64,000 nt of DNA from Pseudomonadota bacterium (lineage in GTDB: Bacteria > Pseudomonadota > Gammaproteobacteria > Magnimaribacterales > D2472), in assembly GCA_028344535.1 (NCBI GenBank), contig JAOMBK010000006.1:1211-65210 (forward strand), read 5' to 3'. The notes below the pieces were generated by a model. That model saw nothing but the letters and a program-made list of their open reading frames with translations. It did not search any database and was not told the DNA's origin. Positions 43,443 through 64,000 of the stretch are shown here, piece after piece; the first letter of the stretch is position 1, and every line of letters begins with the position of its first letter. Made by a program: the position numbers and the translations under genes.

Positions 43443-43501
43443 CGATCATTGCACGATATGCGCAAGTATTAGTGTGTTATTAAAACTTAGGAGTATTTTA
43501 A

Positions 43502-46492: not shown

Positions 46493-46508
46493 GAAAAGGA
46501 AAAAAATT

Positions 46509-46538
46509 AAAAAAGGGTGCTTTAGCACCCTTTTTTTT
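46509..46538 (+). terminator. Intrinsic terminator
   Basis: A6-GGGTGC-ttta-GCACCC-T8. Confidence 0.9.
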
Positions 46539-46632
46539 ACAAATTATTCCAATTCAAAATACTCTAAAAAGTTGACATCTTGTGTCAAAATGGCAACAAT
46601 TACGGGAACTAACAAACTTTTAGGGAGTTTAT

Positions 46633-49593
46633 ATGTCTAAATTAATCAAATTTTCTTTGGTTGCAGTCCTTTCTTTAGGCCTAATGCCAAATACTTCATT
46701 CGCTCAAGAGAGCGAAGATGATGTTGAAGAGGTTATCGTTACTGGTTCTAAGATTAAGAAATCAGTCTTTGATAGTTCAAAGCCTTTAGAAATTATCTCT
46801 GATGCTGCCATTGAGAGAACAGGCCTTAACAACATTGGTGATATCTTACAAAGCATTTCATCTAATGATGGTAACGGAATTCGACCAGTTACTACTGCTA
46901 CAAACGGCGGTGATGGTTCTAACGAAATATCATTAAGAAATCTTGGAGCTGGAAGAACCCTAGTTCTTGTTGATGGAAGAAGGTGGGTAACAGATGCATT
47001 TGGTTCTGTTGATATGAACACAATTCCTGCCTCTATCATTCAAAGAGTTGAAATCCTAAAGGATGGAGCTTCTTCAATTTATGGTTCGGACGCAGTTGCA
47101 GGGGTAATTAACATTATTACCAAGAAAGACTATGACGGTTTTGAAATGAGAGCTTTTACAGGTGAATATGATGCTGGTTACGGAAAACAAGATTCCATCA
47201 GCATGCAATTTGGAAGCACATCAGAAAAGTCTTCTAGCATTCTTTCTCTATCATTTGCTGCTCAAGAAGAAATTATGGCAGGTCAAATTCCAAGAGCAAA
47301 TCAACCTTACTATGGTTGTTCTAATGTGCCAAATAGTGGTACCGGCCCTCAAAACTCCCCAACTAACTTAGGACCTAGCCCTGAACAAAACTCAGGATAT
47401 GGTAACTTTGCTCCAGCAAGCGATAGTTTTGTTTGCGGATCATCATTCCCTGCCTATGGTAGATACTTTACTTTAAATAAATATTTAGAACCTGGTAAAT
47501 CAGGTGCTTTACCTGAGCATTTCATTCCATGGTCAAATGCTGGACGTTATAACTATGCTCCAGTTAACCATGTACAAAATCCAATCGATCAATATTCTGT
47601 ATATGCATATTCTGATTATGATATCTCAGATGACATGACTGCATATGTTCAAATCAACTACACAAAATCAAGACGTGATAATCAGTTAGCGCAGGTTCCA
47701 ATGACTGCATATGGTGGAGCTGGACCTCAGTGGCAGCTAAATAATGGTAGATTTGCTACTGCTGGTGGTTATTTCAATGTCTTGAATCAAGACACATCTT
47801 TTGGTTTTAGATCTATTGCTATTGGTCCTAGGATTTATAGTTATGACTATGACATTTTCGGAATAAGACTCGGATTGGATGGTAATTTTGAGCTTGGTGG
47901 AAACACATATAACTGGAGTGTTGGTACTCAAATTAATGATGCTCAATACGATAGTAAGTTGTACAACTTTGTTGACCTTGTTCACTTAGGAAAAGCAGTT
48001 GGAGACTCATTTAGAGATCCAATTAGCGGTGCATTAACTTGCGGAACTCCAGACGCTCCTGTTTCTCAATGTGTTCCATTTAATATATTTGGTGGACCAG
48101 ATCTTGGTCTTTCTGCTGGAAGAATTTCACAAGCTGAATACGACGCAATGGTAGATTATGTTGGATATGATGGAGTGCAAAATGCAGCCTTTGATAGCGA
48201 CAACTACTGGGCTGAAATCTCTGGTCCTTTATTTGAGATGCCTTATGGAACAGCCTTCTTTGCTGCTGGTTATGAAAAAAGAGCATCAGGTTATGTTGAT
48301 ACTCCAGATGCACTCATTACTTCCGGGGGTTCTTCTACCAACTATAGAGAGCCTACATCAGGTAAAACTTCTGTTGAAGAATTTTTCGTAGAAATTAATA
48401 TACCTCTTCTTGAAGGTGTAACTGGTGCTCAAGAGTTAGAAGTAACACTTTCTGCAAGAACATCAGATTACTCTGCTGGTGGTATGGTTGGATTTACTCC
48501 AAATAGTAATAATCCAGGAAAACCATCAACCAGTGAGATTGGTATCAGATGGAGACCAATTGATGACGTTCTAGTTAGAGCAACTATGGGTGAAACTTTT
48601 AGAGCTCCTACTGTAGGAAACTTGTATCGAGGTGGTGGTGAGTCATTCCCACAAGCTACAGACCCTTGTAATACAGATCAATTCCCATCACAAACTGCTG
48701 GAACTCAGGCTAACTGTTTAGCTGCTGGGGTACCTGCAGGTGGTGCTGAGCAACCAACTACTCAAATTAGAGCATTTGTTGGCGGTAACCCATTCTTAGC
48801 CCCTGAAGAAGGTGAAAATGCTACCGTTGGTATCGTATACACTCCTAGCCAAATTGATGGCTTAAGCATGAGTGTTGATTTCTGGGAAATTGAATTAGAA
48901 AATATCTTTAACTCAATTGGTGTTGGAACAGTTCTAAACAGATGTTATGTTGACTCTACTCAACAAGACGATAACTTCTGTTCATTTGTTACAAGAACAG
49001 GTAACGGTGGTCTTCAGACTGTTAGAACAGCCCAAGTTAACTCCGCTCTTCAAAATGTTTCAGGTGTTGACTTTGTAATTAACTACTCATTTGATGTTGA
49101 AAATTATGGTTCATTCACTACAGGTTTTGACATGGTTTATTACACTAAAGATGAATTTGCTCAAGCAACCACTTCAACTCCATCCGAGTCATTCGGTTGG
49201 TATGATGGTGGTGCTGACTTTAGATGGAGAGCTAACGCATCTGTATTGTGGGAGTACAATGATTTCACTACATCTCTCAACTTTAGATTCTTAGATGACA
49301 ACAAAGATGATTGTTGGTTATCTACATATTATGGTTTGAACGATGACTGTTCTAACCCTGATGATGCCAATAATTTTGGAGACTATGGATACAATCAAAT
49401 GGAAGTTGAGTATTACACAGACTTGCAAGTTGATTATCAATACAGTGATTCAATCAATGTGTTTATTGGAGCTAGAAACCTATTCGGTGAAGAGCCTCCA
49501 ATTGCATACGATGCATTTGCTCAAAACTTTGACTTTGCTTGGGATTTACCAGGCGGAGCCTTTGTTTATGGTGGATTTAAAATCTCACTATAA
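46633..49593 (+). CDS. TonB-dependent receptor
   Basis: EEVIVTGS, SLRNLGAGRTLVLVDGRR, YGSDAVAGVIN, RNLFGEEPP. Confidence 0.96.
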   Translation: MSKLIKFSLVAVLSLGLMPNTSFAQESEDDVEEVIVTGSKIKKSVFDSSKPLEIISDAAIERTGLNNIGDILQSISSNDGNGIRPVTTATNGGDGSNEISLRNLGAGRTLVLVDGRRWVTDAFGSVDMNTIPASIIQRVEILKDGASSIYGSDAVAGVINIITKKDYDGFEMRAFTGEYDAGYGKQDSISMQFGSTSEKSSSILSLSFAAQEEIMAGQIPRANQPYYGCSNVPNSGTGPQNSPTNLGPSPEQNSGYGNFAPASDSFVCGSSFPAYGRYFTLNKYLEPGKSGALPEHFIPWSNAGRYNYAPVNHVQNPIDQYSVYAYSDYDISDDMTAYVQINYTKSRRDNQLAQVPMTAYGGAGPQWQLNNGRFATAGGYFNVLNQDTSFGFRSIAIGPRIYSYDYDIFGIRLGLDGNFELGGNTYNWSVGTQINDAQYDSKLYNFVDLVHLGKAVGDSFRDPISGALTCGTPDAPVSQCVPFNIFGGPDLGLSAGRISQAEYDAMVDYVGYDGVQNAAFDSDNYWAEISGPLFEMPYGTAFFAAGYEKRASGYVDTPDALITSGGSSTNYREPTSGKTSVEEFFVEINIPLLEGVTGAQELEVTLSARTSDYSAGGMVGFTPNSNNPGKPSTSEIGIRWRPIDDVLVRATMGETFRAPTVGNLYRGGGESFPQATDPCNTDQFPSQTAGTQANCLAAGVPAGGAEQPTTQIRAFVGGNPFLAPEEGENATVGIVYTPSQIDGLSMSVDFWEIELENIFNSIGVGTVLNRCYVDSTQQDDNFCSFVTRTGNGGLQTVRTAQVNSALQNVSGVDFVINYSFDVENYGSFTTGFDMVYYTKDEFAQATTSTPSESFGWYDGGADFRWRANASVLWEYNDFTTSLNFRFLDDNKDDCWLSTYYGLNDDCSNPDDANNFGDYGYNQMEVEYYTDLQVDYQYSDSINVFIGARNLFGEEPPIAYDAFAQNFDFAWDLPGGAFVYGGFKISL

Positions 49594-49653: not shown

Positions 49654-51261
49654 ATGAAAACTAAACACTTTTTTATCTTATTAGCATTTGTCATAGCTGG
49701 TTGTAGCAAATCTGTTTCACCAGTTGATTCCTCAATTGAAACAGGAGTATTCCATTTTGGAAATGGATCAGAGCCCCAAGGAATTGATCCTCATATTGTT
49801 ACAGGAGTGCCTGAGCATCATATTTTAATTTCTCTATGTGAAGGTTTAACAATCCCTAATCTAAATAGTGGCGGTAATCTTCCCGGAGCTGCTGAATCAT
49901 GGACAGTAAGCGATGACGGTAAAGAATATATATTTAAATTAAATAAAAATGGAAAATGGTCTAATGGAGACCCAGTAACTGCTGATGACTTTGTGTGGTC
50001 TTGGATGAGAATATTAACTGCGAGTCTGGGCTCTCAATATCCTGATATGCTTTATTACCTGGAAGGCGCGGAAGAATATCATACTGGTATAATCAGTAAT
50101 TTTGATGAGGTTGGCGTAAAAGCAGTTGATAAATATACTTTAAAAGTTAATTTAAAGAATCCAACCCCTTTTTTTATTGGCATGTTAAGTCATTACAGTA
50201 CTTGGCCTGTTCACAAAGACACGGTCTTAAAACATGGTGCAATAGATGATAGAAACGGCCAATGGACAAGACCTGGTAATTTTGTTTGTAATGGACCATT
50301 TCAATTAAAATCTTGGGAGTTAAATAATAAAATTGTTGTAGAAAAGAATCCTAATTATTGGGATTCTGAAAAAGTAAGTTTAAATGAAATGCATTTTTAT
50401 CCAGTTTCTAATGTAATGACCGAAGATAGAATGTTTAGAGCTGGACAGTTGCATGTAACCTCTACATTGCCATCACAAAAATGCCCAATTTATATTGAAG
50501 AAAATAATCCTGATTTAAGAATTGATCCATACATGGGTCAATATTTCTATCGATTGAATACTAACAACCCATCTTTAAAGGATGTAAGAGTAAGAAAGGC
50601 TTTAGCATTTTCAATTGATAGAAAACTTTTAGTAGAAAAAGTTACCAAATGCGGTCAAATTCCAGCATATTCTTTTACTCCTCCAGGCTCAAATGGATAC
50701 CAGCCAGATACTAAAATTCCGTTCGATCCAGAATTAGCAAAAGAACTTTTGACTGATGCTGGTTACTCTGAAAGCAATCCTTTTCCTAAACTTGAAATCT
50801 TGTTTAATACTAATGAAGATCATAGAAAATTGGCTCTAGCGATACAGCAAATGTGGCAACAAAATCTAGGAATCGAGGTTGAGCTTGTAAATCAAGATTG
50901 GAAAGTATACTTGAGTAGAGAAATGGTGGGAGATTTTCAGGTTTCGCGAGCAGGATGGATAGGAGATTATGAAGATCCAAATACCTTCCTTGATCTTATG
51001 AGACCTAATAGAGGAAATAATAAGACAGGCTGGGAAGATGCTAATTATGACTCAATGGTTGAAAGAGCAAATTCAATGAATGATCAAACTCAAAGATATG
51101 AACTATTTAAAGAAGCTGAAAGAATTCTTATCGATAATATGCCAATCATCCCTCTTTATACATATGTTCGATCTTATCAATTATCACCTGATGTTAAAGG
51201 TTACAATCCACACATCTTAGATCACCATCACCCAAAGTTTATTTATCTAGAAAGAGATTGA
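49654..51261 (+). CDS. oppA: Oligopeptide ABC transporter substrate-binding lipoprotein
   Basis: Lipobox IAGC, EPQGIDP, WSNGDPVTADDF, RAGWIGDY. Confidence 0.92.
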   Translation: MKTKHFFILLAFVIAGCSKSVSPVDSSIETGVFHFGNGSEPQGIDPHIVTGVPEHHILISLCEGLTIPNLNSGGNLPGAAESWTVSDDGKEYIFKLNKNGKWSNGDPVTADDFVWSWMRILTASLGSQYPDMLYYLEGAEEYHTGIISNFDEVGVKAVDKYTLKVNLKNPTPFFIGMLSHYSTWPVHKDTVLKHGAIDDRNGQWTRPGNFVCNGPFQLKSWELNNKIVVEKNPNYWDSEKVSLNEMHFYPVSNVMTEDRMFRAGQLHVTSTLPSQKCPIYIEENNPDLRIDPYMGQYFYRLNTNNPSLKDVRVRKALAFSIDRKLLVEKVTKCGQIPAYSFTPPGSNGYQPDTKIPFDPELAKELLTDAGYSESNPFPKLEILFNTNEDHRKLALAIQQMWQQNLGIEVELVNQDWKVYLSREMVGDFQVSRAGWIGDYEDPNTFLDLMRPNRGNNKTGWEDANYDSMVERANSMNDQTQRYELFKEAERILIDNMPIIPLYTYVRSYQLSPDVKGYNPHILDHHHPKFIYLERD

Positions 51262-51267
51262 TATTTA

Positions 51268-52191
51268 ATGATAGCAATTTTTTTTAAAAGAATTTTACTT
51301 GCTATACCGGTATTATTTGCAGTTGCTAGTATCACTTTCTTTTTAATAAAAATTGCACCAGGAGGACCCTTTGATGCTGATAAGGCTGTATCTCCTCAGG
51401 TATTGAAGAACTTAAATGAAGCTTATAACTTAGATGCATCTAATTGGGAGCAATATGTCGATTACATGACTGGGTTGATTCAAGGTGATTTAGGTCCTTC
51501 ATTTAGATTTCCAGGCAGATCTGTTTCAGAAATGATTGCTACTGGATTACCAGTTACTTTTGAATTAGCTTTTTATGCAATTTTAATTGCTTTAGTTATG
51601 GGCGTATTTTTAGGGGTACTCGCAGCATTAAAAAGAAATACATTTTTAGACTTTATCCCTATGGCAATTGCAATGATTGGTATATGCGTTCCATCATTTC
51701 TTATGGGGCCTTTATTGGTTTTAATTTTTGGGCTTAATCTTGAATTACTCCCTGTATCTGGCTGGGATCAATTACCTGGAGATAAAATCTTACCATCTCT
51801 AACATTAGGATTTGCATATGCTGCTTATATCGCTAGATTGAGTAGAGGTGGAATGTTAGAAGTTTTAAATCAGGACTTTATCAGAACAGCTAGAGCCAAG
51901 GGCCTTGCTGAAAGAATAATTGTAGTCAAGCATGCTATGCAAGGTGGGTTAATTCCAGTTGTATCATTTTTAGGACCAGCTATTGCTGGTTTACTTGCAG
52001 GATCTTTTGTTGTTGAAACTATCTTTCAAATTCCAGGGCTGGGAAGATTTTATGTTGAAGCAGCATTTAACCGGGACTATACAATGATCCTAGGAACCAC
52101 AATATTTTTCTCTGCAATGATAGTTTTCTTTAATTTGTTATCTGATCTAGCTGCTTTGTGGATGAACCCAAGATCAAGAGATGTGCAATGA
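51268..52191 (+). CDS. oppB: Oligopeptide ABC transporter permease
   Basis: APGGPF, GDLGPSF, DFIRTARAKGL, NRDY. Confidence 0.93.
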   Translation: MIAIFFKRILLAIPVLFAVASITFFLIKIAPGGPFDADKAVSPQVLKNLNEAYNLDASNWEQYVDYMTGLIQGDLGPSFRFPGRSVSEMIATGLPVTFELAFYAILIALVMGVFLGVLAALKRNTFLDFIPMAIAMIGICVPSFLMGPLLVLIFGLNLELLPVSGWDQLPGDKILPSLTLGFAYAAYIARLSRGGMLEVLNQDFIRTARAKGLAERIIVVKHAMQGGLIPVVSFLGPAIAGLLAGSFVVETIFQIPGLGRFYVEAAFNRDYTMILGTTIFFSAMIVFFNLLSDLAALWMNPRSRDVQ

Positions 52192-53039
52192 AAAATAATT
52201 CTTTGTGGTCAGATGCTATATATAGATTAACCAGGAATAGAGCTGCTATGTTGGGTGGTTTTATATTAGTAATGCTTGTAATTTGCGCCATACTGGCTCC
52301 ATGGATCGCTCCATACTCTTATTCATTTCAAGATTTAAATTTGGGTGCAAGCCCTCCATCTTCAGAGCATCTTTTAGGAACAGATATTTTGGGAAGAGAT
52401 TTATTAAGTAGAATTTTATACGGTGCACGTATTTCATTATTAGTTGGATTTGTTGCAACTGGTGTTGCTCTTGTTATTGGAGTTTCCTGGGGGATAGTTG
52501 CTGGATATATTGGAGGAAGAGTTGACTCGATTATGATGAGAATAGTTGATGTTCTATATGGACTCCCGTTTATTATTTTTATTATTCTTTTGATGGTAAT
52601 TTTTGGTAGGAACCTTTGGCTTTTATTCGGGGCAATTGGAGCCGTTGAATGGCTCACCATGGCAAGAATAGTAAGAGGTCAAGTAATTGGTTTAAAAAAT
52701 CAAGAATTTGTTTTAGCAGCTCAAGCTATGGGGGTTTCAAACTTATCAATGTTTAGGAGACATCTATTGCCTAATATTCTAGGACCAATTGCTGTATACG
52801 CAACTTTAACGATCCCCCAAGTAATGCTTTTAGAGGGATTTCTAAGCTTTCTTGGGTTAGGCATTCAACCTCCAATGAGTAGCTGGGGAACTCTTATTAA
52901 AGATGGCGTTGAATCAATGGAGGAATATAGCTGGTTACTAATCTATCCAGGTATAACATTCACAATTACCTTGTTTGCATTAAACTTTTTTGGAGACGGT
53001 CTTAGAGATGCCCTAGACCCAAAAACTTCTGATAATTAA
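52188..53039 (+). CDS. oppC: Oligopeptide ABC transporter permease
   Basis: HLLGTDILGRD, GARISL, RHLLPN, GDGLRDALDP; start moved to ATG 52188. Confidence 0.93.
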   Translation: MKNNSLWSDAIYRLTRNRAAMLGGFILVMLVICAILAPWIAPYSYSFQDLNLGASPPSSEHLLGTDILGRDLLSRILYGARISLLVGFVATGVALVIGVSWGIVAGYIGGRVDSIMMRIVDVLYGLPFIIFIILLMVIFGRNLWLLFGAIGAVEWLTMARIVRGQVIGLKNQEFVLAAQAMGVSNLSMFRRHLLPNILGPIAVYATLTIPQVMLLEGFLSFLGLGIQPPMSSWGTLIKDGVESMEEYSWLLIYPGITFTITLFALNFFGDGLRDALDPKTSDN

Positions 53040-54487
53040 AAAGCTTTAATAATAATTTTTAATACCTGCCCAGGTTTAATTTCATTATTGGATAATTCAT
53101 TAATACTTCTAATATCTGAGATCTCAATATTAAATATATCCGCTATTCGGTAAAGACTATCTCCTTGTTTGACGCTATACAAAATAGTTCTTTTTTTTGA
53201 ATTAATTGTTCGATAAATATTTTTATTTCCAATATTTAATTCTTTCCCAATTGTTAAAGGTGAATTCATCCTGAAACCATTGTTCTTTGCTATTTCTGCA
53301 GGAGAAATTTTATATTGAATTCCAAGATTCCATAAAGTATCACCTTCGCTAATGATATGGGCCTGATAGGGAATAAATGTTTGATTTTGATCGTTGCTCA
53401 AAGGAATTAATAACTCTTGATTTAAACTTAAGACATTAGAAGCTAGATAATTAACTTTTTTCAGGACATTTACCTCTGTTTCAAATTCTTCAGCTATCTT
53501 CCATAGGCTATCTCCTTGCGAAACCTTATGTGTGACCCAATTGATTTGATTTGTTTGAATAAACTGATCTTTTTTAAGATTTAATATTTCTTCTAATTCA
53601 ACGGGGATATTAAATATAGTTTTATTTCCTGGAGGAGAAGCCCATTTTGTATATCCTGCATTCAATTTATAAACAAATTCAGGTTTCAAGCCAGCAAACT
53701 CACTGAAAGCCAATATTTCAACTTGACCATCAAGCTCTATGCTACCCAAAACTTTTTTATTTGGAAAATTTGGTAGATTAATTCCGTACTTGTCAGCATT
53801 AACAACTAATTCAAGTATTGCTTTAAATTTCGGTACATACTCCTTCGTTTGTTTTGGAAGTTTAAGATTTTCATAATTAGTGGGTTTTCCAGCTCTTTTA
53901 TTGAGTTTGATTTGTTTTTCAAGTCGAGTTGGACCGCCATTATAGGCGGCAAGGGTATAGGTAATTTCCCTATTAAATCTATTATGAAGGTAGGCCAAAT
54001 ACCTTACAGCAGCTTTTGATGATACTAAGGGGTCATGTCTTTGCTCATACCACCATGTATCTTCAAGGTTATATATTCTTGCTGTTGCAGGCATAAACTG
54101 CCATATTCCCATTGCACCTGATGCGGAGATTGAGAATGGATCATAGTTACTTTCAATGTAGGGAAGCAATGCTAATTCTGCTGGCAGTCTGTATTTATCT
54201 AACTCTTCAAGAACAAAAAATATAAAGTACCTTCCTTTTTCAAGAAGTTTATCGAGTTGAGCTGGGTTAGAAAGGTACGTATTAATGTATCCGAGTGTTT
54301 TTTCATCAAGATTGGCTTGTTCGCTTGAGCTGGCATCTTTTATTCGATCCCAAACATTCTCATAAACGAGAATATCTTCGGATGCTTCTAATGGAATAGG
54401 CTCTATATATTGATCAGCTTGAATAATAGAAGGTAATTCACAGCCTGAGGCTAAAAGCAATACAAGAATTAACAAGAATCTGTTCAT
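53036..54487 (-). CDS. mltD: Membrane-bound lytic transglycosylase D
   Basis: Lipobox ASGC, LPYIES, GIWQFMP, AAYNGG, three LysM repeats. Confidence 0.93.
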   Translation of the reverse strand: MNRFLLILVLLLASGCELPSIIQADQYIEPIPLEASEDILVYENVWDRIKDASSSEQANLDEKTLGYINTYLSNPAQLDKLLEKGRYFIFFVLEELDKYRLPAELALLPYIESNYDPFSISASGAMGIWQFMPATARIYNLEDTWWYEQRHDPLVSSKAAVRYLAYLHNRFNREITYTLAAYNGGPTRLEKQIKLNKRAGKPTNYENLKLPKQTKEYVPKFKAILELVVNADKYGINLPNFPNKKVLGSIELDGQVEILAFSEFAGLKPEFVYKLNAGYTKWASPPGNKTIFNIPVELEEILNLKKDQFIQTNQINWVTHKVSQGDSLWKIAEEFETEVNVLKKVNYLASNVLSLNQELLIPLSNDQNQTFIPYQAHIISEGDTLWNLGIQYKISPAEIAKNNGFRMNSPLTIGKELNIGNKNIYRTINSKKRTILYSVKQGDSLYRIADIFNIEISDIRSINELSNNEIKPGQVLKIIIKAF

Positions 54488-55767: not shown

Positions 55768-57161
55768 CCAAAGTTACCAGATTTGCACCCAGTCCAACGG
55801 GAGCCTTGCACATAGGTGGAGTACGAACTGCATTATTTAACTATGTGTATGCCAAGCAAAATAAAGGTAAGTTCTTAATCAGAGTTGAGGACACAGATGC
55901 TGAAAGATCAACAAAGGAGTATGAAGACAATATTCTCAAAGGATTATCTGATATTGGCATTGATCCAGATGAGCCTCCTGTCAGGCAATCTGAAAGATCT
56001 GAGCTGTATAGGTTGGCTGCAGAAAAAATAATAGAATCCGGCAATGCCTATTGGTGTGATTGTTCAAAAGAAGCTCTAGAAGAAATGCGCAAAGAGCAGG
56101 AGTCAGCTGGTAAAAAACCTATGTATGATGGAAGAAGTAGAAATCTTGGACTGAAGCGTTCTGAAAATACAGTCCTAAGATTAAAAACACCAAAAGATGG
56201 CAACTTAGTTTTTCATGATTTGGTAAGAGGTGAAGTAGTTTTCCAGAACTCTGAATTAGATGATTTGATTCTTCTTAGAAGCGATGGCTCTCCAACATAT
56301 CATCTATGTAATGTCGTCGATGATTTTAATCAAGGAATTACAACTGTAGTAAGGGGTGAAGATCATTTAAGTAATACACCTAGACAAATACACATTCAGC
56401 AAGCTTTAGGTTATCCACCTCTTGAGTACGCACACTTACCAATGGTTCTAGGCCAAGATAAAAAAAGATTATCTAAAAGAAATGCTGTAACAAGCTTGCA
56501 AGATTATTTTGATCAAGGATATCTTGAATCATCTATGATCAATATGCTTGCAAGATTGGGTTGGTCTAAAGGTGACAAAGAAATTTTTTATTTAGATGAC
56601 TTAATTGTAGACTTTAGAATTCAGGAAGTTCAGAAAGCTGGCGCTGTCTTTGACCCAGTAAAGCTAGACTGGATTAATAATCATCACTTAGCTGCGCTCT
56701 CTTTTGATGATTTTAAGGAAAGATTGACCCCATTTCTTAACAGCGTTGAAATTGATTTAACTCAAAAGCAAAACAGCAATAAGATTATTGAAGCCATGAG
56801 GAGCTCTAAACCAACACTCCTTGGAGTAGCCAAAGATCTTGTACCCTATTTTTTTCAAATAGATTCATATGATGAAAAAGCAGCAAATAAATTTTTAAGC
56901 GGATCAGAGCCTGTTTTGGAATATGTGCAAAGAAAATTAAATAAATTAGAAGCTTGGAATGAGGAATCTATAGATCATGCATTGCAAGAGGCTCAAACTG
57001 CATTAAGCTTGCCAACTCCAAAGCTTAATCAACCAATAAGAATCGCAATGACGGGATCTACTCAATCTCCTTCTTTGGGCTTAACGCTTTCATTGTTTGA
57101 TTTGGTTGAGGTGAACAACAGAATTGATGCAGCGCTAAAATATTTAGCTCATTCTACCTAG
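55764..57161 (+). CDS. gltX: Glutamate--tRNA ligase
   Basis: RFAPSPTG, HIGG, RGEDH, RLSKR. Confidence 0.97.
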   Translation: MTKVTRFAPSPTGALHIGGVRTALFNYVYAKQNKGKFLIRVEDTDAERSTKEYEDNILKGLSDIGIDPDEPPVRQSERSELYRLAAEKIIESGNAYWCDCSKEALEEMRKEQESAGKKPMYDGRSRNLGLKRSENTVLRLKTPKDGNLVFHDLVRGEVVFQNSELDDLILLRSDGSPTYHLCNVVDDFNQGITTVVRGEDHLSNTPRQIHIQQALGYPPLEYAHLPMVLGQDKKRLSKRNAVTSLQDYFDQGYLESSMINMLARLGWSKGDKEIFYLDDLIVDFRIQEVQKAGAVFDPVKLDWINNHHLAALSFDDFKERLTPFLNSVEIDLTQKQNSNKIIEAMRSSKPTLLGVAKDLVPYFFQIDSYDEKAANKFLSGSEPVLEYVQRKLNKLEAWNEESIDHALQEAQTALSLPTPKLNQPIRIAMTGSTQSPSLGLTLSLFDLVEVNNRIDAALKYLAHST

Positions 57162-57711
57162 AAACACATGAGGCAATTATTGCCTGAGGATGCTCTTGAG
57201 TTAAATGTTCCAAAGTATCTAAAGATGTTTCTTTAGCGATCCCATACTCAGCAATGCCAAAGATTTGATTAGGCTCAATAACTAGATTGTCTGAAATTTT
57301 TTTTATGCCGTCATAACAATCCAATAGATTTAAATTTTCCATATTATTGGCAGAATAAAAAATCTTTTTTTTAAATTCCACTTCAGTTAATTGATCTGAT
57401 TGAGTTAAAACAAAATAGTTTTTTGGAACATTCATAAATTTAATTTCATCTTTTCGCAATATATCGCCAGCATCAGAGGACATTTGTTTTCCAATAACAT
57501 CTAACGATTCCATTGATTGGTATTTGAAAATACTTATTGATCCTAGCGATTTATAAAGTGGATTCAGCCCTGGGTTAACATAATTCCGCTCATAACCCTC
57601 AAAAGACAGAAGTGAGGAGGCAAGTGGGGCATGTTGATTTTCATAGTAATCCCTAAAATCATCATCAGATAACCCTTCCATCTTATGAATAAATGCTAAA
57701 GCTTTAATCAA
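57154..57711 (-). CDS. EthD-domain protein
   Basis: GLSDDDFRDYYENQHAPL...YERNYV, DEIKF. Confidence 0.8.
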   Translation of the reverse strand: MIKALAFIHKMEGLSDDDFRDYYENQHAPLASSLLSFEGYERNYVNPGLNPLYKSLGSISIFKYQSMESLDVIGKQMSSDAGDILRKDEIKFMNVPKNYFVLTQSDQLTEVEFKKKIFYSANNMENLNLLDCYDGIKKISDNLVIEPNQIFGIAEYGIAKETSLDTLEHLTQEHPQAIIASCVSR

Positions 57712-59416
57712 TTTGAATTGCTACCCCTGCATTGGGCCTTCTTAAGTCAGCAAAACCCTCTTTGCCTTTTGAAGAGATTAAAATGCTTTGTGTTGAACCC
57801 ATAGTTTTTGATTCTTCGAGCTCATGACCATATGATTCAAGTATTTGTAACGTATCTCTACTAAACCCTTTTTCTAAACGTAAATTTTTATAAGGCCAAT
57901 CTTTATGAAGTCTTGGGAGCATGGTGGCTTCCCCAAGATTTAAATCAAAGTCTATGACCCCAGTCACAACTCTCAACACAGCAGCTGGTATTAAAGCACC
58001 CCCAGGAGATCCTGTGATGAGCTTTAACTCATTTTTTTCATTGAAGATAATAATTGGAGTCATAGTGCTCATAGGTCTTTTGCCTGGCTCAAATCTATTG
58101 CCTATGCTTGCTGAGCGATCTATTACTTCAGGGTTTCCATACTGATAAGCAAAGTTATTCATTTGATTATTAAGAAGAATTCCAGTACCTGGAATAGTTA
58201 CCCCAGAGCCAAATGAGTAACCTAATGTATATGTGTTAGAAACAACATTGCCATGTTTATCAATGATTGAGTAATGAGTTGTATTTTCACCCTCTTGAAA
58301 TAATGAATCAGGATTCAAGGCTTCCGGTGGGGTGGCTTCTTGAAAATTGATTGACTTGGCTAATGATTTTGCTCTTTCCTTTGAAATTATTTTTTTTATC
58401 GGGACACCATAAAACTGAGGATCTCCCATGTATCTTGATCTATCCATATGTCCACGTTGTAATGCTTCTGCGAATAGATGAAGAAAGCTTGCTGAGTTTG
58501 GTCCGACTTTAGCAGTATCAAAGTTTTCTAGAATATTTAATCCTTCAAGCAACACTGCAGCACCCCCGGCTGGAGGAGGGTGGGCAAGGACTTTGTGATT
58601 CCTGTAAGTTGTTTGAATGGGTTCTGCAAACCTAGGCTTATATTCTTTAAGGTCTTTAGCAGAAATGTACCCACCATTTTGTTTCATAGCTTGAACTATT
58701 TTCTTGGCAATAGATCCAGTATAAAAAGCCTCCTCACCATTTCTAGCTATTTCTCGAAAAGTCCAAGCTAAATCAGGCCGCTTCATTACTAAATGTTCTT
58801 TTACCGGATCACCATTTTGATAATAGATATTTTCAGATTCTGAATCGAGATTTATTTGATCAGCACTACCAATAGCTTTATTGAGATCATAGCTAACTTG
58901 TATTCCTTTTTGCGCTTGTTTTATGACGGGCTGCAATATTTTCTTTAATGGTAATTTCCCATAGCGATCATGTGTCTGTAATAACCCAGCCACAGTTCCA
59001 GGAACCCCAGATGCTTTATAACCATATCTCCTTTGGTCATAATTATTCTTTAAAAATAAAAAGTCATTATTTGAAATATTTTTGGGTGCAGCACTTCTAA
59101 AATCTACTGCTATTGTTTTATTTTCATCCTTTAAATAAACCAACATGAAGCCTCCACCCCCTAAATTACCTGCTCTAGGAAGTGTTGTTGCCAAAGAAAA
59201 CCCAACTGCAACTGCTGCATCAATTGCATTACCACCCATATTTAAAATTTCTATTCCAATATCTGAAGAAGCTTGATTCTGTGAAACGACCATTCCAGAA
59301 GTTCCAATGGTGGGATGAAAGGGAGAGGGATAGTCAATATATCTAACTTGCCCCCAAGCATTAAAGGAAACAACTAGAAGATAAAATAAAATATTTCTAA
59401 GAGTCATGAATTTCAA
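57704..59416 (-). CDS. ggt: GGT-family Ntn hydrolase with altered acyl pocket
   Basis: GGNAIDAAVA, GNLGGGGF, TTHYS nucleophile, PGKRP, GSPGG; signal peptide. Confidence 0.93.
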   Translation of the reverse strand: MKFMTLRNILFYLLVVSFNAWGQVRYIDYPSPFHPTIGTSGMVVSQNQASSDIGIEILNMGGNAIDAAVAVGFSLATTLPRAGNLGGGGFMLVYLKDENKTIAVDFRSAAPKNISNNDFLFLKNNYDQRRYGYKASGVPGTVAGLLQTHDRYGKLPLKKILQPVIKQAQKGIQVSYDLNKAIGSADQINLDSESENIYYQNGDPVKEHLVMKRPDLAWTFREIARNGEEAFYTGSIAKKIVQAMKQNGGYISAKDLKEYKPRFAEPIQTTYRNHKVLAHPPPAGGAAVLLEGLNILENFDTAKVGPNSASFLHLFAEALQRGHMDRSRYMGDPQFYGVPIKKIISKERAKSLAKSINFQEATPPEALNPDSLFQEGENTTHYSIIDKHGNVVSNTYTLGYSFGSGVTIPGTGILLNNQMNNFAYQYGNPEVIDRSASIGNRFEPGKRPMSTMTPIIIFNEKNELKLITGSPGGALIPAAVLRVVTGVIDFDLNLGEATMLPRLHKDWPYKNLRLEKGFSRDTLQILESYGHELEESKTMGSTQSILISSKGKEGFADLRRPNAGVAIQID

Positions 59417-60849
59417 AATATCATTGGAGCTAAATAGAAGGCAAATATGGTGACTAAAAAGACCCCAATAATATTTAATGCAAATCCTGCTCTCATCATA
59501 TCTGGTATGGTTAATTTTCCTGAACCAAAAACAATTGCATTAGGTGGAGTCGCTACAGGTAACATAAATGCACAACTTGCAGCTAATACAACAGGGATTG
59601 TCAGGGCTACTGGAGCTATACCAAGAGCAACTGCAACTGCTCCAACTACTGGTAAAAATGTTGAGGTGGTTGCAACGTTAGATGTGATTTCTGTTAAGAA
59701 TATAATTAAAGTTGCAACTGCTAGTATCAGGACAATGGGTGGGACATTTCCTAAAATGGTTAAGCCTTGGCCAATCCAGCCCCCAAGACCTGATGAACCA
59801 ATAGATGCAGCTAAAGATAATCCACCTCCAAACAAGACAAGTAATCCCCAAGGCAGTTTATTAGCTTGTTCCCAAGTTAGTAAATCTGTTTTTGCATTCT
59901 CAGAGGGAATAAAGAAAAAACTCAATGCTGCAAATATAGCAATTCCTGCATCTGTAAGGCCAGATAAAGGAACAAAGTTATCAAGCAATGTTCTGAACAT
60001 CCAAGCACTCGCTGCCATAGAAAAAATGATTAAAACTTTTTTTTCATCTCTGCCTAGAGGACCTAAATCAGTCAGCATGTTTTGAAGCTGTAATTTTGTT
60101 TCTATACTAGCTATAAAATGAACGGGATACACTATTTTTGTAATTGCATACCAGGATGCGCCTAGCATAAGAATGGCTAAAGGTACCCCTAATTTCATCC
60201 AATCCACAAAAGAAATTTCAATACCATAGGTTTCTTGTATAAAACCTACAAATATTATATTTGGAGCTGTACCTACCAAAGTTGACATTCCTCCAATTGA
60301 AGCAGCATATGCAATGCCAAGCAAAAGCGATGTTTCAAAGTTTTTTCTTTCTTTTGCTGAGAAATTTGGAATAGTTTCAGCAACACTTGAGCATACCGCC
60401 AAACCAATTGGTAAAAGCATTAAAGTCGTTGATGTATTCATCACCCACATGCTTATAGAGGCAGAAACAAGCATAAAGCCACCAACTAATTTTGCTCCAC
60501 TATTTCCAATAGCTATTAACATTTTTAATGCCAATCGTTTATGCAATCCGGATGATTCAATACCTAGAGCTAAAATAAAGCCACCCATGAATAAATAAAT
60601 ATTTGGATTCGCATAGGGTAGAGCAGCTGTCTTAAAATCAGTTACATGAAGTATTGGGAACAAAGCTAACGGCAATAACGCAGTAACGGCCACTGGAACT
60701 GCCTCAGTTGCCCACCAAATCGCCATCAACAGAGTAACAGCAGCCACAGCCCAACCTATTGGCGAGAGAGAATCTGGATTAGGCGTTAGAAGAATAAAAA
60801 AGAAGGCTGCTAAACCTAGCCAAAAACCCCTTTTTTTATAAGCCTGCAT
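59413..60849 (-). CDS. DASS/SLC13 sodium-coupled anion (dicarboxylate) symporter
   Basis: WWATEAVP, SMWVMNTST, GTAPN, TEITSNVAT, AFMLPVATPPNA. Confidence 0.93.
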   Translation of the reverse strand: MQAYKKRGFWLGLAAFFFILLTPNPDSLSPIGWAVAAVTLLMAIWWATEAVPVAVTALLPLALFPILHVTDFKTAALPYANPNIYLFMGGFILALGIESSGLHKRLALKMLIAIGNSGAKLVGGFMLVSASISMWVMNTSTTLMLLPIGLAVCSSVAETIPNFSAKERKNFETSLLLGIAYAASIGGMSTLVGTAPNIIFVGFIQETYGIEISFVDWMKLGVPLAILMLGASWYAITKIVYPVHFIASIETKLQLQNMLTDLGPLGRDEKKVLIIFSMAASAWMFRTLLDNFVPLSGLTDAGIAIFAALSFFFIPSENAKTDLLTWEQANKLPWGLLVLFGGGLSLAASIGSSGLGGWIGQGLTILGNVPPIVLILAVATLIIFLTEITSNVATTSTFLPVVGAVAVALGIAPVALTIPVVLAASCAFMLPVATPPNAIVFGSGKLTIPDMMRAGFALNIIGVFLVTIFAFYLAPMIF

Positions 60850-61712
60850 TATTTCAACCTCGCATAAAACATTTCAGCAGCATAGGGAACCATTTGCTCT
60901 GTATTGCTGTGGCCTTTAGTGGTTGGAACTTCAACCATTCCCCATTTAAAAAATTGATTAACTTCTTTTGATTTAGCTACTGCAGATTTAAAGAAGTTTC
61001 TTCCTCTAGCAAGACGATGCTCTCCCTGCAAGTTAATAATGTCCCAATGATCTGCTACATAAGGTGTATTTGGTTTAGTTGAGGTATCTGCTCTTCCAAG
61101 CATTAGTAGAAAATACTTACTAAAAGCTTGTCTTAGCTTTGCATCATCTATATTTGAATTAGTTAGACCAAAAGGCCACTCTTGATCTGACATTGACAGA
61201 TACCACCCTAAATTCGCTGCAATTGCCAAGGTGAAAGACGCTTGTGGATGATGAAGCACAAACCGATGAACAAAATGTGCTCCAGCACCATGACCATATA
61301 TACCCCAATTCTCTGATTTAATTTTAAATTTCTTCAATGCATTGTTGGCAAGAGGTTCAATAGCCATAAACGCATGCAAATCTTGCTCAATAGGATCTAG
61401 ACTTTTAGTTTTGATATTTCCATAATTAAAACCCCACACTTCTGGAAAACTCTCTTCACTAAATTCAGGAACAATCACCAAAAGATTTAACTCCTGAGAT
61501 GCTTTCACCCATTGATCTCTATACTCTTCAGCGTTTCTTTTCCTTCCATGCATAACAACCACAAGCCTTGTCTCTGCATTTATTTTATTAGGCTTGGCTA
61601 CGAAGGTAGGCAAAGAAGCGCCTGCCCAGTCCTCGAACTCGTAATCGGTCAACTCAGCGTTCGCATTCCATGCAATAGAAGCAAACAAAAAAGTAAAAAT
61701 AAATTTATACAT
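60849..61712 (-). CDS. Exported alpha/beta-hydrolase-fold protein lacking the nucleophile Ser
   Basis: Signal peptide, VMHGRKRNA, YGHGAGAHFVHR, AANLGWY, QGEHRLARG. Confidence 0.75.
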   Translation of the reverse strand: MYKFIFTFLFASIAWNANAELTDYEFEDWAGASLPTFVAKPNKINAETRLVVVMHGRKRNAEEYRDQWVKASQELNLLVIVPEFSEESFPEVWGFNYGNIKTKSLDPIEQDLHAFMAIEPLANNALKKFKIKSENWGIYGHGAGAHFVHRFVLHHPQASFTLAIAANLGWYLSMSDQEWPFGLTNSNIDDAKLRQAFSKYFLLMLGRADTSTKPNTPYVADHWDIINLQGEHRLARGRNFFKSAVAKSKEVNQFFKWGMVEVPTTKGHSNTEQMVPYAAEMFYARLK

Positions 61713-61722
61713 CAATCTTTAT

Positions 61723-61748
61723 AAAAAAAAGGGAGCCAAAGCTCCCTT
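61723..61748 (-). terminator. Intrinsic terminator after TonB receptor
   Basis: GGGAGC-tttg-GCTCCC-T8 on the minus strand. Confidence 0.85.
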
Positions 61749-61765
61749 CAATTTTAGCTTAAATA

Positions 61766-64000
61766 TTAGAATGTAACTCTTAAATCTAAGTAATAATTTC
61801 GACCCCAGTCCGAATGAGCATCTGCATAGTATCCATAGTATCTATCAGCAGTTGGAGCTCTTTCATCCTCTAAGTTTTTCACAGCAAATCTAAGTCTTGC
61901 TTTGTGATCACCAAGATCAAAGTTATATGAAACGGTTGCATCCATAGTCGTCATTTCTGGAACTAGATATGGAACTCCATTTTTTAATCCAAGTGAGGTT
62001 TGAACAAAGGAACCTTTTTTTAGTCCAGTTAAACTAGCGCCCCACGGACCTTTATCCCAAGAAACTCTTATAGTGTGCTTGTTATCATAAATTCCATCTT
62101 TTTCTAGCAAGTCACCAAACCCCTTTAAAGGAATTGATTCAGGGATTTCACCACTATCTTTCTTAGCTTGCAATGCAGCAAATTCACCACTTGCTTTTTG
62201 CTCAAATTTATCAAGGAAAGTTCCGATATATCTCAAATCAAAATCACCAAAATCAGTTTGAATATCGTAATAGATGCCTACATCCATTCCCTCAATGGTT
62301 CTAAGAGCCATGTTGGTATAGTTATTTGTTACATACTTAATGTCTCCAAATGGGCAGACACCTGCAGCAGCGAAGCCAGCAGCATCTCCAGCATCAGGAG
62401 CTTCTCTTACTACGAGCGGGTCGCCTGCAAAGGTATCACAATTATTTAAGCCATTCGCAAATCGCAATAACATGTCATTAACAGTTTGATTCTCTCTGCC
62501 AAATAAACCAATAGTTTTATCTTTTTCAATTGTCCAAGCATCGACAGTTACAATCAAACCATTCATTGGAGTTAAAACGACACCAAATGATGTATTGTCT
62601 GACTCTTCAGCTTCAAGCCCCTTAGCACCTGTTGCGACTCTTTGAATTGTGTATCTTGAGTCAGAGTCAATAACATTCTCAACACTTTGAACCTCATTTA
62701 CTCTAAAAGCAGCACGGTCATATCTTGTTCCAGATCTTGCTACAATTTTTTCATTGATTTGAATGATATTTGGTGCTCTGAATGCAGTAGAGAATGATCC
62801 TCTTAATGTCATCCATGGAGCAACTTCCCACCCAACAGCTAGTTTTCCGACAGTGGTATCTCCAAAGTCTGAAAAGTCTTCATTTCTCACAGCTAGCTGA
62901 GCGTTAATAGATTCAGTAACTGGAATTTGAAATTCAGCAAATAATGATGTCACATCTCTTGAGCCAGATACATCTGGAGTAGGGGAGGAATTGACCACAT
63001 CAGAGACTAATGGGTAGGTATCTCCCTCATAATCAGTATAGGTAATTGTTCCATCTAATCTAGGATCTCTATCATCTATAACCTCTTCCTCTCGATACTC
63101 AAAACCAACCAAAAGACCAACATCTCCAGCAGGAAGAGTCATGAATGATGCATTTGACATTTTGAAGTCAAACATATCAAGAGTGCTTTCATTTTTTCTG
63201 TAAACGCTAATTAAAGCTCTCTCAATATTTGAATTAACTCCTGCACTAAAGGGATTGTATGCGGCAGGCGTAGAGTCATATAATGCTGCTTTAAGCAGGT
63301 TATTTGACATTCTATTTCTAGTCACGTCTCTATGTCTTGCAATTGAGCTGACATAAGCTGTTTCCCAGTCCCAATCTCCTGCAGAACCTCTAAAGCCTTG
63401 AAGAAATCTGTATGTTTCTTTTTTAACATTAACGAGTCTTTGTTTTTCTTCGTATCGATAATTATCAATATAAAGATTTTTACCTGCAAAGATTGCGGTT
63501 GGCACCCCATCAACATTAACTTTAAGTTGGTTTAAATAATAGTTATCTGGCCCAACTCTGTGTTTGGAAGAGCTAAAAGCATATGAGGCATGAGCAGTCC
63601 TATCACTGTCTGAGCTATAAGCTCCAATTTCAGTAAAAGATTCCATGCCATTATCCATTTCATGGTTGATAAATATCACAACATTATTTCTAATAAGCTC
63701 AGATCTAACATCTGTCGGTCCCCAAAAATTACTTCTAAGTGCTCCGTTACCGTCTTGTGCGATACAAGTACCAAAACCAGTATCAAAAAGAGGGTGGCCT
63801 CTATTAGTACATTTTGAATCCCCTAAAGGAAATAACTCAAACTCACCATTAGAGTCAGTCCAGACATGGTTATAACTTTCTCCTGCATGTTCACGAGAGC
63901 TAACCATATCAAACTGTCCATAAAGTGAATTCGAGCTTAAATTTCTAAAAGAAGTGCTAGTTTTCCATGGAGAGTCATCTGCAACGAAGGGTCTGTGATC
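61766..64000 (-). CDS. TonB-dependent receptor (5' end beyond window)
   Basis: Frame open to position 64000; FSTAFRAPN, LEAEESD, KNLEDERAP, C-terminal LRVTF. Confidence 0.93.
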   Translation of the reverse strand, partial: DHRPFVADDSPWKTSTSFRNLSSNSLYGQFDMVSSREHAGESYNHVWTDSNGEFELFPLGDSKCTNRGHPLFDTGFGTCIAQDGNGALRSNFWGPTDVRSELIRNNVVIFINHEMDNGMESFTEIGAYSSDSDRTAHASYAFSSSKHRVGPDNYYLNQLKVNVDGVPTAIFAGKNLYIDNYRYEEKQRLVNVKKETYRFLQGFRGSAGDWDWETAYVSSIARHRDVTRNRMSNNLLKAALYDSTPAAYNPFSAGVNSNIERALISVYRKNESTLDMFDFKMSNASFMTLPAGDVGLLVGFEYREEEVIDDRDPRLDGTITYTDYEGDTYPLVSDVVNSSPTPDVSGSRDVTSLFAEFQIPVTESINAQLAVRNEDFSDFGDTTVGKLAVGWEVAPWMTLRGSFSTAFRAPNIIQINEKIVARSGTRYDRAAFRVNEVQSVENVIDSDSRYTIQRVATGAKGLEAEESDNTSFGVVLTPMNGLIVTVDAWTIEKDKTIGLFGRENQTVNDMLLRFANGLNNCDTFAGDPLVVREAPDAGDAAGFAAAGVCPFGDIKYVTNNYTNMALRTIEGMDVGIYYDIQTDFGDFDLRYIGTFLDKFEQKASGEFAALQAKKDSGEIPESIPLKGFGDLLEKDGIYDNKHTIRVSWDKGPWGASLTGLKKGSFVQTSLGLKNGVPYLVPEMTTMDATVSYNFDLGDHKARLRFAVKNLEDERAPTADRYYGYYADAHSDWGRNYYLDLRVTF

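Follow-up and report, generated by a model that had tools for sequence, protein, structure and literature searches.

The periplasmic gamma-glutamyltranspeptidases (GGTs) of E. coli and H. pylori (MEROPS T03, EC 2.3.2.2 / 3.4.19.13) are the closest described relatives of an enzyme encoded in a 64,000-nt stretch of DNA from a SAR86 bacterium, where its gene stands in line with those of a TonB-dependent receptor and a DASS/SLC13 anion carrier. We refer to the whole stretch, G000:C30:1211-65210 of a 1.03-Mb assembly that is 58% complete, as the window; positions without a prefix are window positions. With the E. coli and H. pylori enzymes the window GGT shares family, length, a signal peptide, the nucleophilic Thr, the Gly-Gly pair and the ligands of the alpha-carboxylate. 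It differs from them in having Gly and Asn for Asn411 and Asp433 (E. coli numbering throughout), in the neutralisation of Glu115, Glu430 and Asp432, in the loss of Tyr444, and in belonging to a separate clade that is tied to a TonB receptor and an anion carrier. Asn433 and the loss of Tyr444 are shared with class IV cephalosporin acylases and engineered E. coli GGT D433N(/Y444A/G484A). These enzymes, in the portions of the literature at hand, are laboratory or industrial cases that have no known natural glutaryl substrate and prefer GGT substrates; unlike them, the variant adds N411G, E115S and D432N, keeps Gly484 and sits in the context of an uptake system. B. anthracis CapD and B. subtilis GGT also belong to the family, and act on gamma-glutamyl bonds of an anionic polymer. 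CapD is a sequence match (3g9k; 7.4e-40 for the large chain), but a distant relative, a Gram-positive surface transpeptidase with no receptor or carrier context.

As a locus, the closest parallels are TonB-receptor loci of the carbohydrate-utilisation (CUT) and polysaccharide-utilisation (PUL) type, which likewise combine a receptor, periplasmic hydrolases, an inner-membrane carrier and a local regulator (LysR in SAR86; an extracytoplasmic-function (ECF) sigma factor with FecR, or a sigma-54 regulator, elsewhere). Unlike in those loci, the hydrolase here is a GGT-family N-terminal nucleophile (Ntn) hydrolase and the carrier is a DASS protein. We regard the locus as one of the utilisation loci led by a TonB receptor, with a distinct GGT subfamily at its centre. 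SAR86 bacteria are among the most abundant heterotrophs of the surface ocean, making up a few per cent of bacteria, and have many TonB receptors, mostly without assigned substrates. In an excerpt of Tang et al. 2012, a marine TonB-dependent receptor adjoins a D-aminoacylase in the gammaproteobacterium NOR5-3. Two SAR86 genome papers take ggt as a route from glutathione to cysteine, which is the reading that the preliminary description of the locus had expected annotation to give; the main-text passages at hand draw no distinction between paralogues and mention neither the receptor nor DASS. Literature searches on the receptor/GGT/DASS combination and on the context of PahZ1 or DgcN, which did not extend to supplementary tables S2 and S5 of the SAR86 papers, found no description of the cassette. 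We tentatively favour the view, which may well prove wrong, that the cassette serves TonB-dependent scavenging of an acidic isopeptide or amide of the gamma-glutamyl type that has no free glutamyl alpha-amino group.

Layout and conservation of the cassette

Five co-oriented open reading frames (ORFs) occupy 57154-64000 on the minus strand and converge on the housekeeping genes gltX, dnaQ and rnhA:

61766 to >64000, minus strand: TonB-dependent receptor, C-terminal 744 codons (PF00593, 1.6e-26)
61728 to 61749, minus strand: terminator-like hairpin with T-run (9 pairs, 5 of them G-C), directly after the receptor stop
60849 to 61715, minus strand: PahZ1-like alpha/beta-hydrolase-fold protein, 288 aa (phmmer against 6ve6, 5.2e-44; no Pfam match)
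59413 to 60849, minus strand: DASS/SLC13 symporter (TIGR00785, 291.7 bits, cut-off 198.6; PF00939, 1.7e-77)
57704 to 59416, minus strand: GGT-family Ntn hydrolase (PF01019, 3.6e-154, residues 56-561; TIGR00066, 495.5 bits, cut-off 357.85)
57154 to 57711, minus strand: EthD-domain protein (PF07110, 31.3 bits, cut-off 22)

The minus-strand ORFs and the family profiles bear out the five co-oriented genes of the preliminary description. Its statement that the last four overlap holds for the listed ORFs, which share 1, 4 and 8 nt, although TTG starts are needed for two of these overlaps; close GGT homologues are 567 aa long, which fits an ATG at 59407, 6 nt past the DASS stop, as the probable start of the GGT gene. 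The cassette genes are tightly packed whichever start codons are used. The signal peptides that had been ascribed to the GGT and to the hydrolase-fold protein are likewise predicted here (MTLRNILFYLLVVSFNAWG/Q and MYKFIFTFLFASIAWNANA/E, respectively); all signal peptides of cassette proteins were read by eye, and these two are kept in orthologues.

The receptor is identified as such by its barrel, while the gene itself is incomplete, its N-terminus being lost at the contig end. Its ORF is open at the end of the window, and the contig stops 542 nt further on; the frame continues to 896-924 codons (L001), beginning inside the plug, and the N-terminus is not assembled. The orthologue from a sister genome (L032:3716-6688; 96.7% identical) is 990 aa long and comprises a signal peptide, the Plug domain (1.4e-12) and the barrel, and a divergent LysR regulator gene lies upstream of it. 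No STN domain was found in this orthologue, and the receptor scores weakly with NCBIfam siderophore-receptor models, well under the cut-offs. Full-length receptor paralogues in the same genome as the window are 22-24% identical to the cassette receptor. Further TonB-receptor-like matches, with 22-32% identity to it, lie in the window at ~43500-47450 (G000:C30:44742-48658).

A GGT protein search over the SAR86 order covered 151 genomes and found matches in 143, usually 2-3 in each. Thirty loci were chosen from the matched genomes for high score and long contig: 16 from family f1, 4 from f4 and 10 from f2. The receptor, DASS and GGT genes occur together in 19/20 f1/f4 loci and 10/10 f2 loci, so the neighbourhood is conserved within SAR86. 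The hydrolase-fold gene is present in 7/20 f1/f4 loci and the EthD gene in 6/20. The core of the cassette consists of receptor, DASS and GGT; the other two genes, which had been counted as members of the system, are accessory. Each genome of family f3 yielded a single GGT match, with a score like those of the canonical paralogue described below.

Across the 20 f1/f4 loci the cassette is always found between the gltX block and a block with a periplasmic M20D aminoacylase, in either orientation, so that it has been inverted, and thus moved, as a unit. The M20D gene (TIGR01891; L032:1227-2663, plus strand, in the sister genome) has equivalents flanking the cassette in 15/20 f1/f4 loci; it falls outside the window because the contig ends before reaching that block. 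The f2 loci (L053, L168-L177) are built differently: the receptor and DASS genes converge on a run of genes for a hydrolase of beta-lactamase/penicillin-binding-protein (PBP) fold, which carries a signal peptide, followed in tandem by a canonical and a variant GGT. All five genes are seen in 7/10 of these loci, the other three being cut by contig ends. Just past the gltX block the window holds a Dpp/Opp-type ABC importer (49654-53039, plus strand), made up of two permeases and a binding protein of the SBP_bac_5 family, and a lytic transglycosylase of LysM-SLT type (53036-54487, minus strand); these could serve the handling of peptides or peptidoglycan, although their appearance is that of housekeeping genes.

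The carrier gives the single DASS match of the assembly (tblastn). Its closest solved relatives are the human di- and tricarboxylate carriers NaDC1 (1.5e-76), NaCT (3.5e-76) and NaDC3 (6.7e-72), with the sulfate carrier NaS1 (2.8e-63) and VcINDY behind them. The motif of hairpin 2 is SNV, as in NaDC1 and NaCT, while that of hairpin 1 is MNT in the window and SNT in NaDC1, NaCT and NaDC3. Sulfate uptake was considered as a role of this carrier and set aside as less likely, since carboxylate carriers score better and SAR86, in the parts of the published work at hand, lacks sulfate assimilation.

The variant GGT and its occurrence beyond SAR86

The window GGT was aligned with E. coli GGT (2e0w; phmmer, 6.7e-130), and the numbering of pocket positions was checked by counting from T391A, which placed Asn411, Gln430, Asp433 and Tyr444 as expected. 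The nucleophile and autoprocessing residue Thr391 (TTHYS) and the oxyanion pair Gly483-Gly484 (SPGG) are kept, and are invariant in 20 orthologues with 49-91% identity. Among the alpha-carboxylate ligands Arg114 and Ser462 are kept and Ser463 is replaced by Thr; Gln430 is also kept. The full set of changes against E. coli reads N411G, D432N, D433N, Y444I and S463T. G411 and N433 occur together in 20/20 orthologues and N432 in 17/20; the alpha-amino positions 411/430/433 are Gly/Gln/Asn in the window GGT and in every orthologue. The lid loop is present, with I, R, E, N, S, V or L at position 444 among orthologues. The pocket changes from which the preliminary description had argued are thus real and conserved. 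A comparison of 25 variants with 68 canonical GGTs gave E115S, E430Q, D432N, S463T and a few others as group-specific (the groups were defined by positions 411 and 433, for which the difference is circular). Glu430 is found in 99% of the 68 canonical enzymes. With D432N/D433N and E115S/E430Q, four acidic residues around the site of the donor alpha-ammonium group are lost.

The effect of some of these substitutions is known from E. coli GGT. According to excerpts of a review, D433N abolishes transpeptidation, keeps ~82% of hydrolysis and confers glutaryl-7-aminocephalosporanic acid (GL-7-ACA) acylase activity, which Y444A raises further; in canonical GGT the lid Tyr444 is hydrogen-bonded to Asn411. 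The same excerpts state that natural class IV cephalosporin acylases have Asn at 433, yet are thought to be mainly GGTs. Judged by its residues, the pocket of the variant argues for, but does not prove, a donor whose alpha-amino group is not free. An acylated or missing alpha-amino group would agree with both the loss of acidic residues and the small amino acid at 411, and the kept alpha-carboxylate triad (R114, S462, S/T463) implies a C5, glutamyl-like acyl group and not a succinyl group. The variant is probably not the ordinary glutathione enzyme of its annotation.

A canonical GGT paralogue is encoded elsewhere in the same genome (G000:C23:12274-13965). It has a signal peptide and the residues N411, E430, D432, D433 and F444; no receptor or carrier is present among its neighbours, which gave no clue. 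A third, more distant paralogue (G000:C20:3174-4223; 32% identity), cut by a contig end, has Ser for R114. The one genome among the 20 f1/f4 loci that lacks DASS (G006, locus L047; a single case) encodes a GGT with R114K, S462T and S463N.

In a FastTree phylogeny of 134 GGTs, all 47 sequences with G411/N433, together with two of a Y-type pocket, form one clade with support of 0.999. A scan of a genome collection with generic GGT patterns gave 80 GGT loci among the matches listed, which serve as an arbitrary background set and not as a census. Six of these 80 have the non-canonical pocket of the variant clade and all six adjoin a receptor homologue (31-80% identical to the cassette receptor), while a receptor homologue lies beside none of the other 74. 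Again among the matches listed, the pocket reads G-Q-N/R-N in two SAR86 genomes, a Caulobacter metagenome-assembled genome (MAG) and a Sphingomonadaceae genome, and Y-..-S-G-N in a Phenylobacterium MAG and a Sphingomonas genome. In lineages other than SAR86 the receptors beside variant GGTs are 31-58% identical to that of the cassette. The Sphingomonadaceae locus has a sigma-54 response regulator gene upstream and, exactly between receptor and GGT, in the slot of DASS, a gene for a sodium:dicarboxylate symporter of the SDF/DAACS family, unrelated to DASS (PF00375, 1.9e-108), whose product matches DctA (3e-62) and GltP (5e-57) about equally. Loci of the Caulobacter type carry an ECF sigma factor, FecR and an STN-bearing receptor. 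In Sphingomonas, an M20D homologue (L107:10670-12106; 52% identical) follows the related receptor-GGT pair.

A metagenome scan with GC-rich codons of the motif NNQMNN[FY] yielded 34 loci, of which 30 encode a variant GGT and 4 are chance matches. Among the 30, a receptor homologue is present in 14 and an SDF carrier in 11, with one or both in 19; in the remaining 11 the available DNA ends <=0.8 kb upstream of the GGT gene. A D-aminoacylase-family gene occurs in 8/30 loci, 7 of these 8 times beside the SDF carrier. Its product matches D-aminoacylase 1rjp (1.5e-69) and N-acyl-D-glutamate deacylase 3gip (2.8e-61) and has a signal-like N-terminal extension, from which it is predicted to be periplasmic. 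In one locus (L141) the variant GGT adjoins DgcN (516 bits against a cut-off of 480), which is described, in the portion of the source at hand, as the first enzyme of the DgcN-DgcA pathway of D-glutamate. A second GGT with the pocket R-E-..-E-Q-T-D is encoded directly downstream of the variant in 11/30 loci (L141, L143, L144, L146, L148, L156, L159-L162, L165), and a dihydrodipicolinate-synthase (DHDPS)-family gene and a gene for a helix-turn-helix (HTH)-cupin regulator often follow it in the high-GC loci.

The exact DNA pattern of NNQMNNF had no match in four alphaproteobacterial genomes, because their motif ends in Y; the widened NNQMNN[FY] pattern matched 1/401 Alphaproteobacteria genomes, which was the starting genome itself and so no new locus. 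Among protein clusters, G411/N433 is present in 11 of the best 150 50%-identity representatives drawn from 1.84 billion proteins. The best-scoring representative, P0246, has 1129 aa with two matched stretches and may be a fused double GGT. We conclude that the variant GGT subfamily is real and diversified, and sparse outside SAR86.

Accessory proteins and transcription

The 288-aa protein is a clear homologue of PahZ1 (poly(aspartic acid) hydrolase-1; 6ve6), an enzyme known from Sphingomonas sp. KT-1 and from Pedobacter sp. KP-2. In a polyanion, PahZ1 cleaves the beta-aspartyl isopeptide bonds by means of a Ser-Asp-His triad (S157, D225 and H280 in the KT-1 enzyme, where S157A is inactive) and a positioning Arg. 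Besides 6ve6, phmmer found 9o7u (1e-31) and LpqC 3d0k (3.1e-27), and profiles of poly(hydroxybutyrate) (PHB)-depolymerase esterases match weakly (3.2e-6). An AlphaFold2 (AF2) model (pLDDT 86.2) agrees with 6ve6 in a Foldseek comparison (5.7e-26; TM 0.83/0.89; 34% identity). Asp, His and the substrate-positioning Arg (equivalent to R246) are kept. Unlike in PahZ1, the catalytic Ser is replaced by Gly, GHSAG becoming GHGAG, in 13/13 aligned SAR86 orthologues. In the model this Gly occupies the nucleophile elbow that joins strand 136-141 to helix 143-154, and an R-K-R stretch has been gained in the oxyanion loop. The protein is thus probably non-catalytic and the enzyme name of PahZ1 is unwarranted for it; an active PHB depolymerase or esterase was rejected, as the nucleophile is absent. 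We infer an accessory role in binding an acidic isopeptide, which would make the protein a candidate conserved pseudo-enzyme, and its homology links it to polyanionic isopeptides.

The EthD assignment covers less of its protein: PF07110 matches residues 12-46 only, and TIGR02118 scores 27.3 bits, below its cut-off of 30.5. Its Atlas neighbours are EthD clusters only; the protein has no signal peptide and gave no sequence match in the PDB.

The hairpin and T-run after the receptor stop are found at the same site in 17/19 SAR86 loci, with stems that vary in a compensatory way (GGGAGC/GCTCCC, GGGAGT/ACTCCC, GGGGGC/GCCCCC). Over the whole region the count of terminator-like sites is 6 against 5.4 expected by chance, that is, not above chance. 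The hairpin is likely an attenuator between the receptor and the downstream genes. The receptor is therefore probably partly uncoupled from the four genes that follow, and the hairpin probably keeps receptor transcripts well in excess of enzyme transcripts.

Thirteen runs recorded as RNA contain part of the stretch, and the five genes are all covered by contigs of four metatranscriptome runs, each from a different study, which bridge the EthD/GGT, GGT/DASS and DASS/hydrolase-fold junctions; stretches without cover were left uninterpreted. These contigs represent sequence present in RNA libraries, from which a single transcript is unprovable, and DNA carry-over is possible. In runs X1 and X6 the contig word depth over the receptor is ~10x that over the downstream genes; contig depth cannot rank genes, and the excess is only a hint that fits the terminator.

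Proposed substrate and alternative readings

From the pocket, the carrier and the partner genes we infer the substrate class, the direction of flow and the cargo of DASS as follows. The receptor would bring the compound into the periplasm, where the variant GGT, its alpha-ammonium site lost, would form a gamma-acyl enzyme and then hydrolyse it. This would free a glutamate with its amino group substituted or missing, a pure dicarboxylate, and DASS would import this dicarboxylate (an N-acyl-glutamate) with sodium. The PahZ1-like protein may bind polyanionic substrate and would not cleave it. Where a lineage has a periplasmic deacylase, the SDF carrier would instead take up free (D-)glutamate. 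The recurrence of the receptor-GGT pair with a non-homologous carrier of acidic substrates is the strongest support for a path from receptor to Ntn hydrolase to carrier, and makes this path well supported; the SDF protein in the place of DASS also backs the earlier proposal of a periplasmic Ntn hydrolase that frees a dicarboxylate for a symporter. The co-occurrence of variant GGT, receptor and SLC13 carrier is found within SAR86; outside it the variant adjoins a homologous receptor, and an SDF carrier takes the slot of DASS.

N-acyl-gamma-(D)-glutamyl peptides are, as a best guess, what the cassette takes up in nature; they are favoured because the C5-type site is kept, the amino site is lost, and the partners have matching substrates. 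The recurring partners are D-aminoacylase, M20D aminoacylase, the PBP-fold hydrolase, a second or canonical GGT, DgcN and the PahZ1 homologue, and all of them would have N-acyl or D-amino-acid compounds as substrates. Stem peptides of peptidoglycan (such as L-Ala-gamma-D-Glu-mDAP; mDAP, meso-diaminopimelate) are our leading candidate and oligo- or poly-gamma-glutamate the second, again as best guesses. The route proposed here, in which an N-acylated glutamate is released by gamma-D-glutamyl cleavage, deacylated and used as D-glutamate, resembles DgcN-DgcA and the catabolism of peptidoglycan peptides. Known gamma-D-Glu-DAP peptidases (such as the MpaA-type amidase) are members of M14 or NlpC/P60 and work in the cytoplasm or on the cell wall; no GGT-family enzyme is known to have this activity. 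Peptidoglycan-derived N-acyl-gamma-D-glutamyl peptides are a recognised pool of refractory marine organic nitrogen. In its most specific form, our proposal would be that SAR86 and scattered soil and freshwater Proteobacteria harvest such peptides by a dedicated pathway around a hitherto unrecognised GGT subfamily, which would act on N-blocked glutamate as a periplasmic gamma-D-glutamyl isopeptidase, fed by the receptor and drained by a sodium-coupled dicarboxylate carrier, the PahZ1 homologue being a novel sort of polyanion-binding pseudo-enzyme; we regard this as doubtful, if possible.

Several observations weigh against scavenging of an amino-blocked gamma-glutamyl compound. By analogy with E. 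coli, a D433N GGT still hydrolyses gamma-glutamyl bonds, so the variant could still use glutathione. The link to D-glutamate rests on lineages other than SAR86: no D-aminoacylase was found in the SAR86 loci searched; unlike described D-glutamate catabolism systems, SAR86 lacks DgcN (0/61 genomes of the order, and 0/1 for the genome of the window, 58% complete); and DgcN adjoins the variant in 1/30 metagenome loci. Within SAR86 the genomes are kin, so that counts overstate independence, and the adjacency of M20D is flanking synteny among relatives and not independent evidence. The hairpin 1 motif of the carrier is M/F-N-T in 31/31 cassette orthologues, the ECF sigma/FecR/STN layout of Caulobacter-type loci is typical of siderophore systems, and, with a terminator after the receptor gene, five-gene co-transcription may occur only as a possibility.

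The alternative that survives best is thiol scavenging, in which glutathione, glutathione disulfide (GSSG), gamma-Glu-Cys or phytochelatins would be taken up as a sulfur source, the GGT would act by hydrolysis only, and DASS or SDF would import the glutamate. Internal gamma-Glu units of phytochelatins are N-blocked and would suit the variant. The sulfur needs of SAR86 keep this a live rival, as the lack of sulfate assimilation and the published glutathione-to-cysteine role of ggt (both from the partial sources named above) point the same way, and so do the hydrolysis retained by E. coli D433N in the review excerpts, the tandem of canonical and variant GGT in f2, and the M20D peptidase that adjoins the cassette. 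However, a canonical periplasmic GGT is already present in the genome of the window, and four acidic residues, near-invariant in the pocket of canonical GGTs, are missing from the variant. Glutathione does not explain why soil and freshwater high-GC lineages pair the clade with D-aminoacylase and once with DgcN, and no gene for cysteine or Cys-Gly was seen in the cassette. We consider thiol scavenging rather unlikely.

A des-amino dicarboxyl amide as the imported compound (N-glutaryl, N-succinyl or 2-oxoglutaryl, including desferrioxamines), from which an acylase-type GGT would free a dicarboxylate for DASS, appears less probable still. N411G and D433N, by which the pocket lacks its alpha-amino ligands and resembles the engineered GL-7-ACA acylase of the review excerpts, would suit such a donor, as would the loss of Tyr444. 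So would the kinship of DASS with di- and tricarboxylate carriers, and the Caulobacter-type layout of ECF sigma factor, FecR and STN is common for siderophore receptors. Against this, the kept R114, S462 and S/T463 call for a carboxylate at C5 distance, which a succinyl group is too short to provide. Among desferrioxamines, only the linear G form has a succinyl group with a free carboxylate. The partners are aminoacylases, a PBP-fold hydrolase, a second or canonical GGT and DgcN, and a DctA/GltP-type SDF carrier fits no better here than with a gamma-glutamyl substrate. No iron-related gene was seen in the SAR86 loci, where Fur boxes were not searched for; a Caulobacter paper on the iron response reports a GGT (CC_0984) down in iron limitation, which is not assignable to the variant and was left unused as evidence. 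Succinyl-hydroxamate siderophores and N-succinyl amino acids, the substrates first suggested for the locus, are therefore not supported, given the alpha-carboxylate triad and partners that are amino-acid and peptide enzymes and not iron genes.

That the genes are neighbours by descent only, as conserved synteny in a streamlined genome with no common substrate, is hardly credible: the kinship of all SAR86 loci, the constant position beside gltX-dnaQ-rnhA, the conserved terminator that splits the receptor from the remaining genes, and the coming and going of the hydrolase-fold and EthD genes would allow it, but the receptor-GGT pair recurs in Alphaproteobacteria and on many high-GC metagenome contigs with a non-homologous carrier in the place of DASS, the cassette is inverted as one block, and the DASS-less locus (L047, a single case) is also the one with R114K, S462T and S463N.

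Should the variant turn out to be an ordinary glutathione hydrolase, no more than a neat annotation of an operon would be left of the finding. If instead scavenging of an acidic gamma-glutamyl-type compound is true, one SAR86 receptor would gain a testable substrate class, and the role of SAR86 ggt in obtaining sulfur from glutathione would apply to one paralogue only. A natural GGT clade would then carry the substitutions that engineers introduced for glutaryl-acylase activity, which would be of interest for the specificity of the family and for biocatalysis. There would also be an added route for the turnover of dissolved organic nitrogen that contains gamma-glutamyl groups or D-glutamate.

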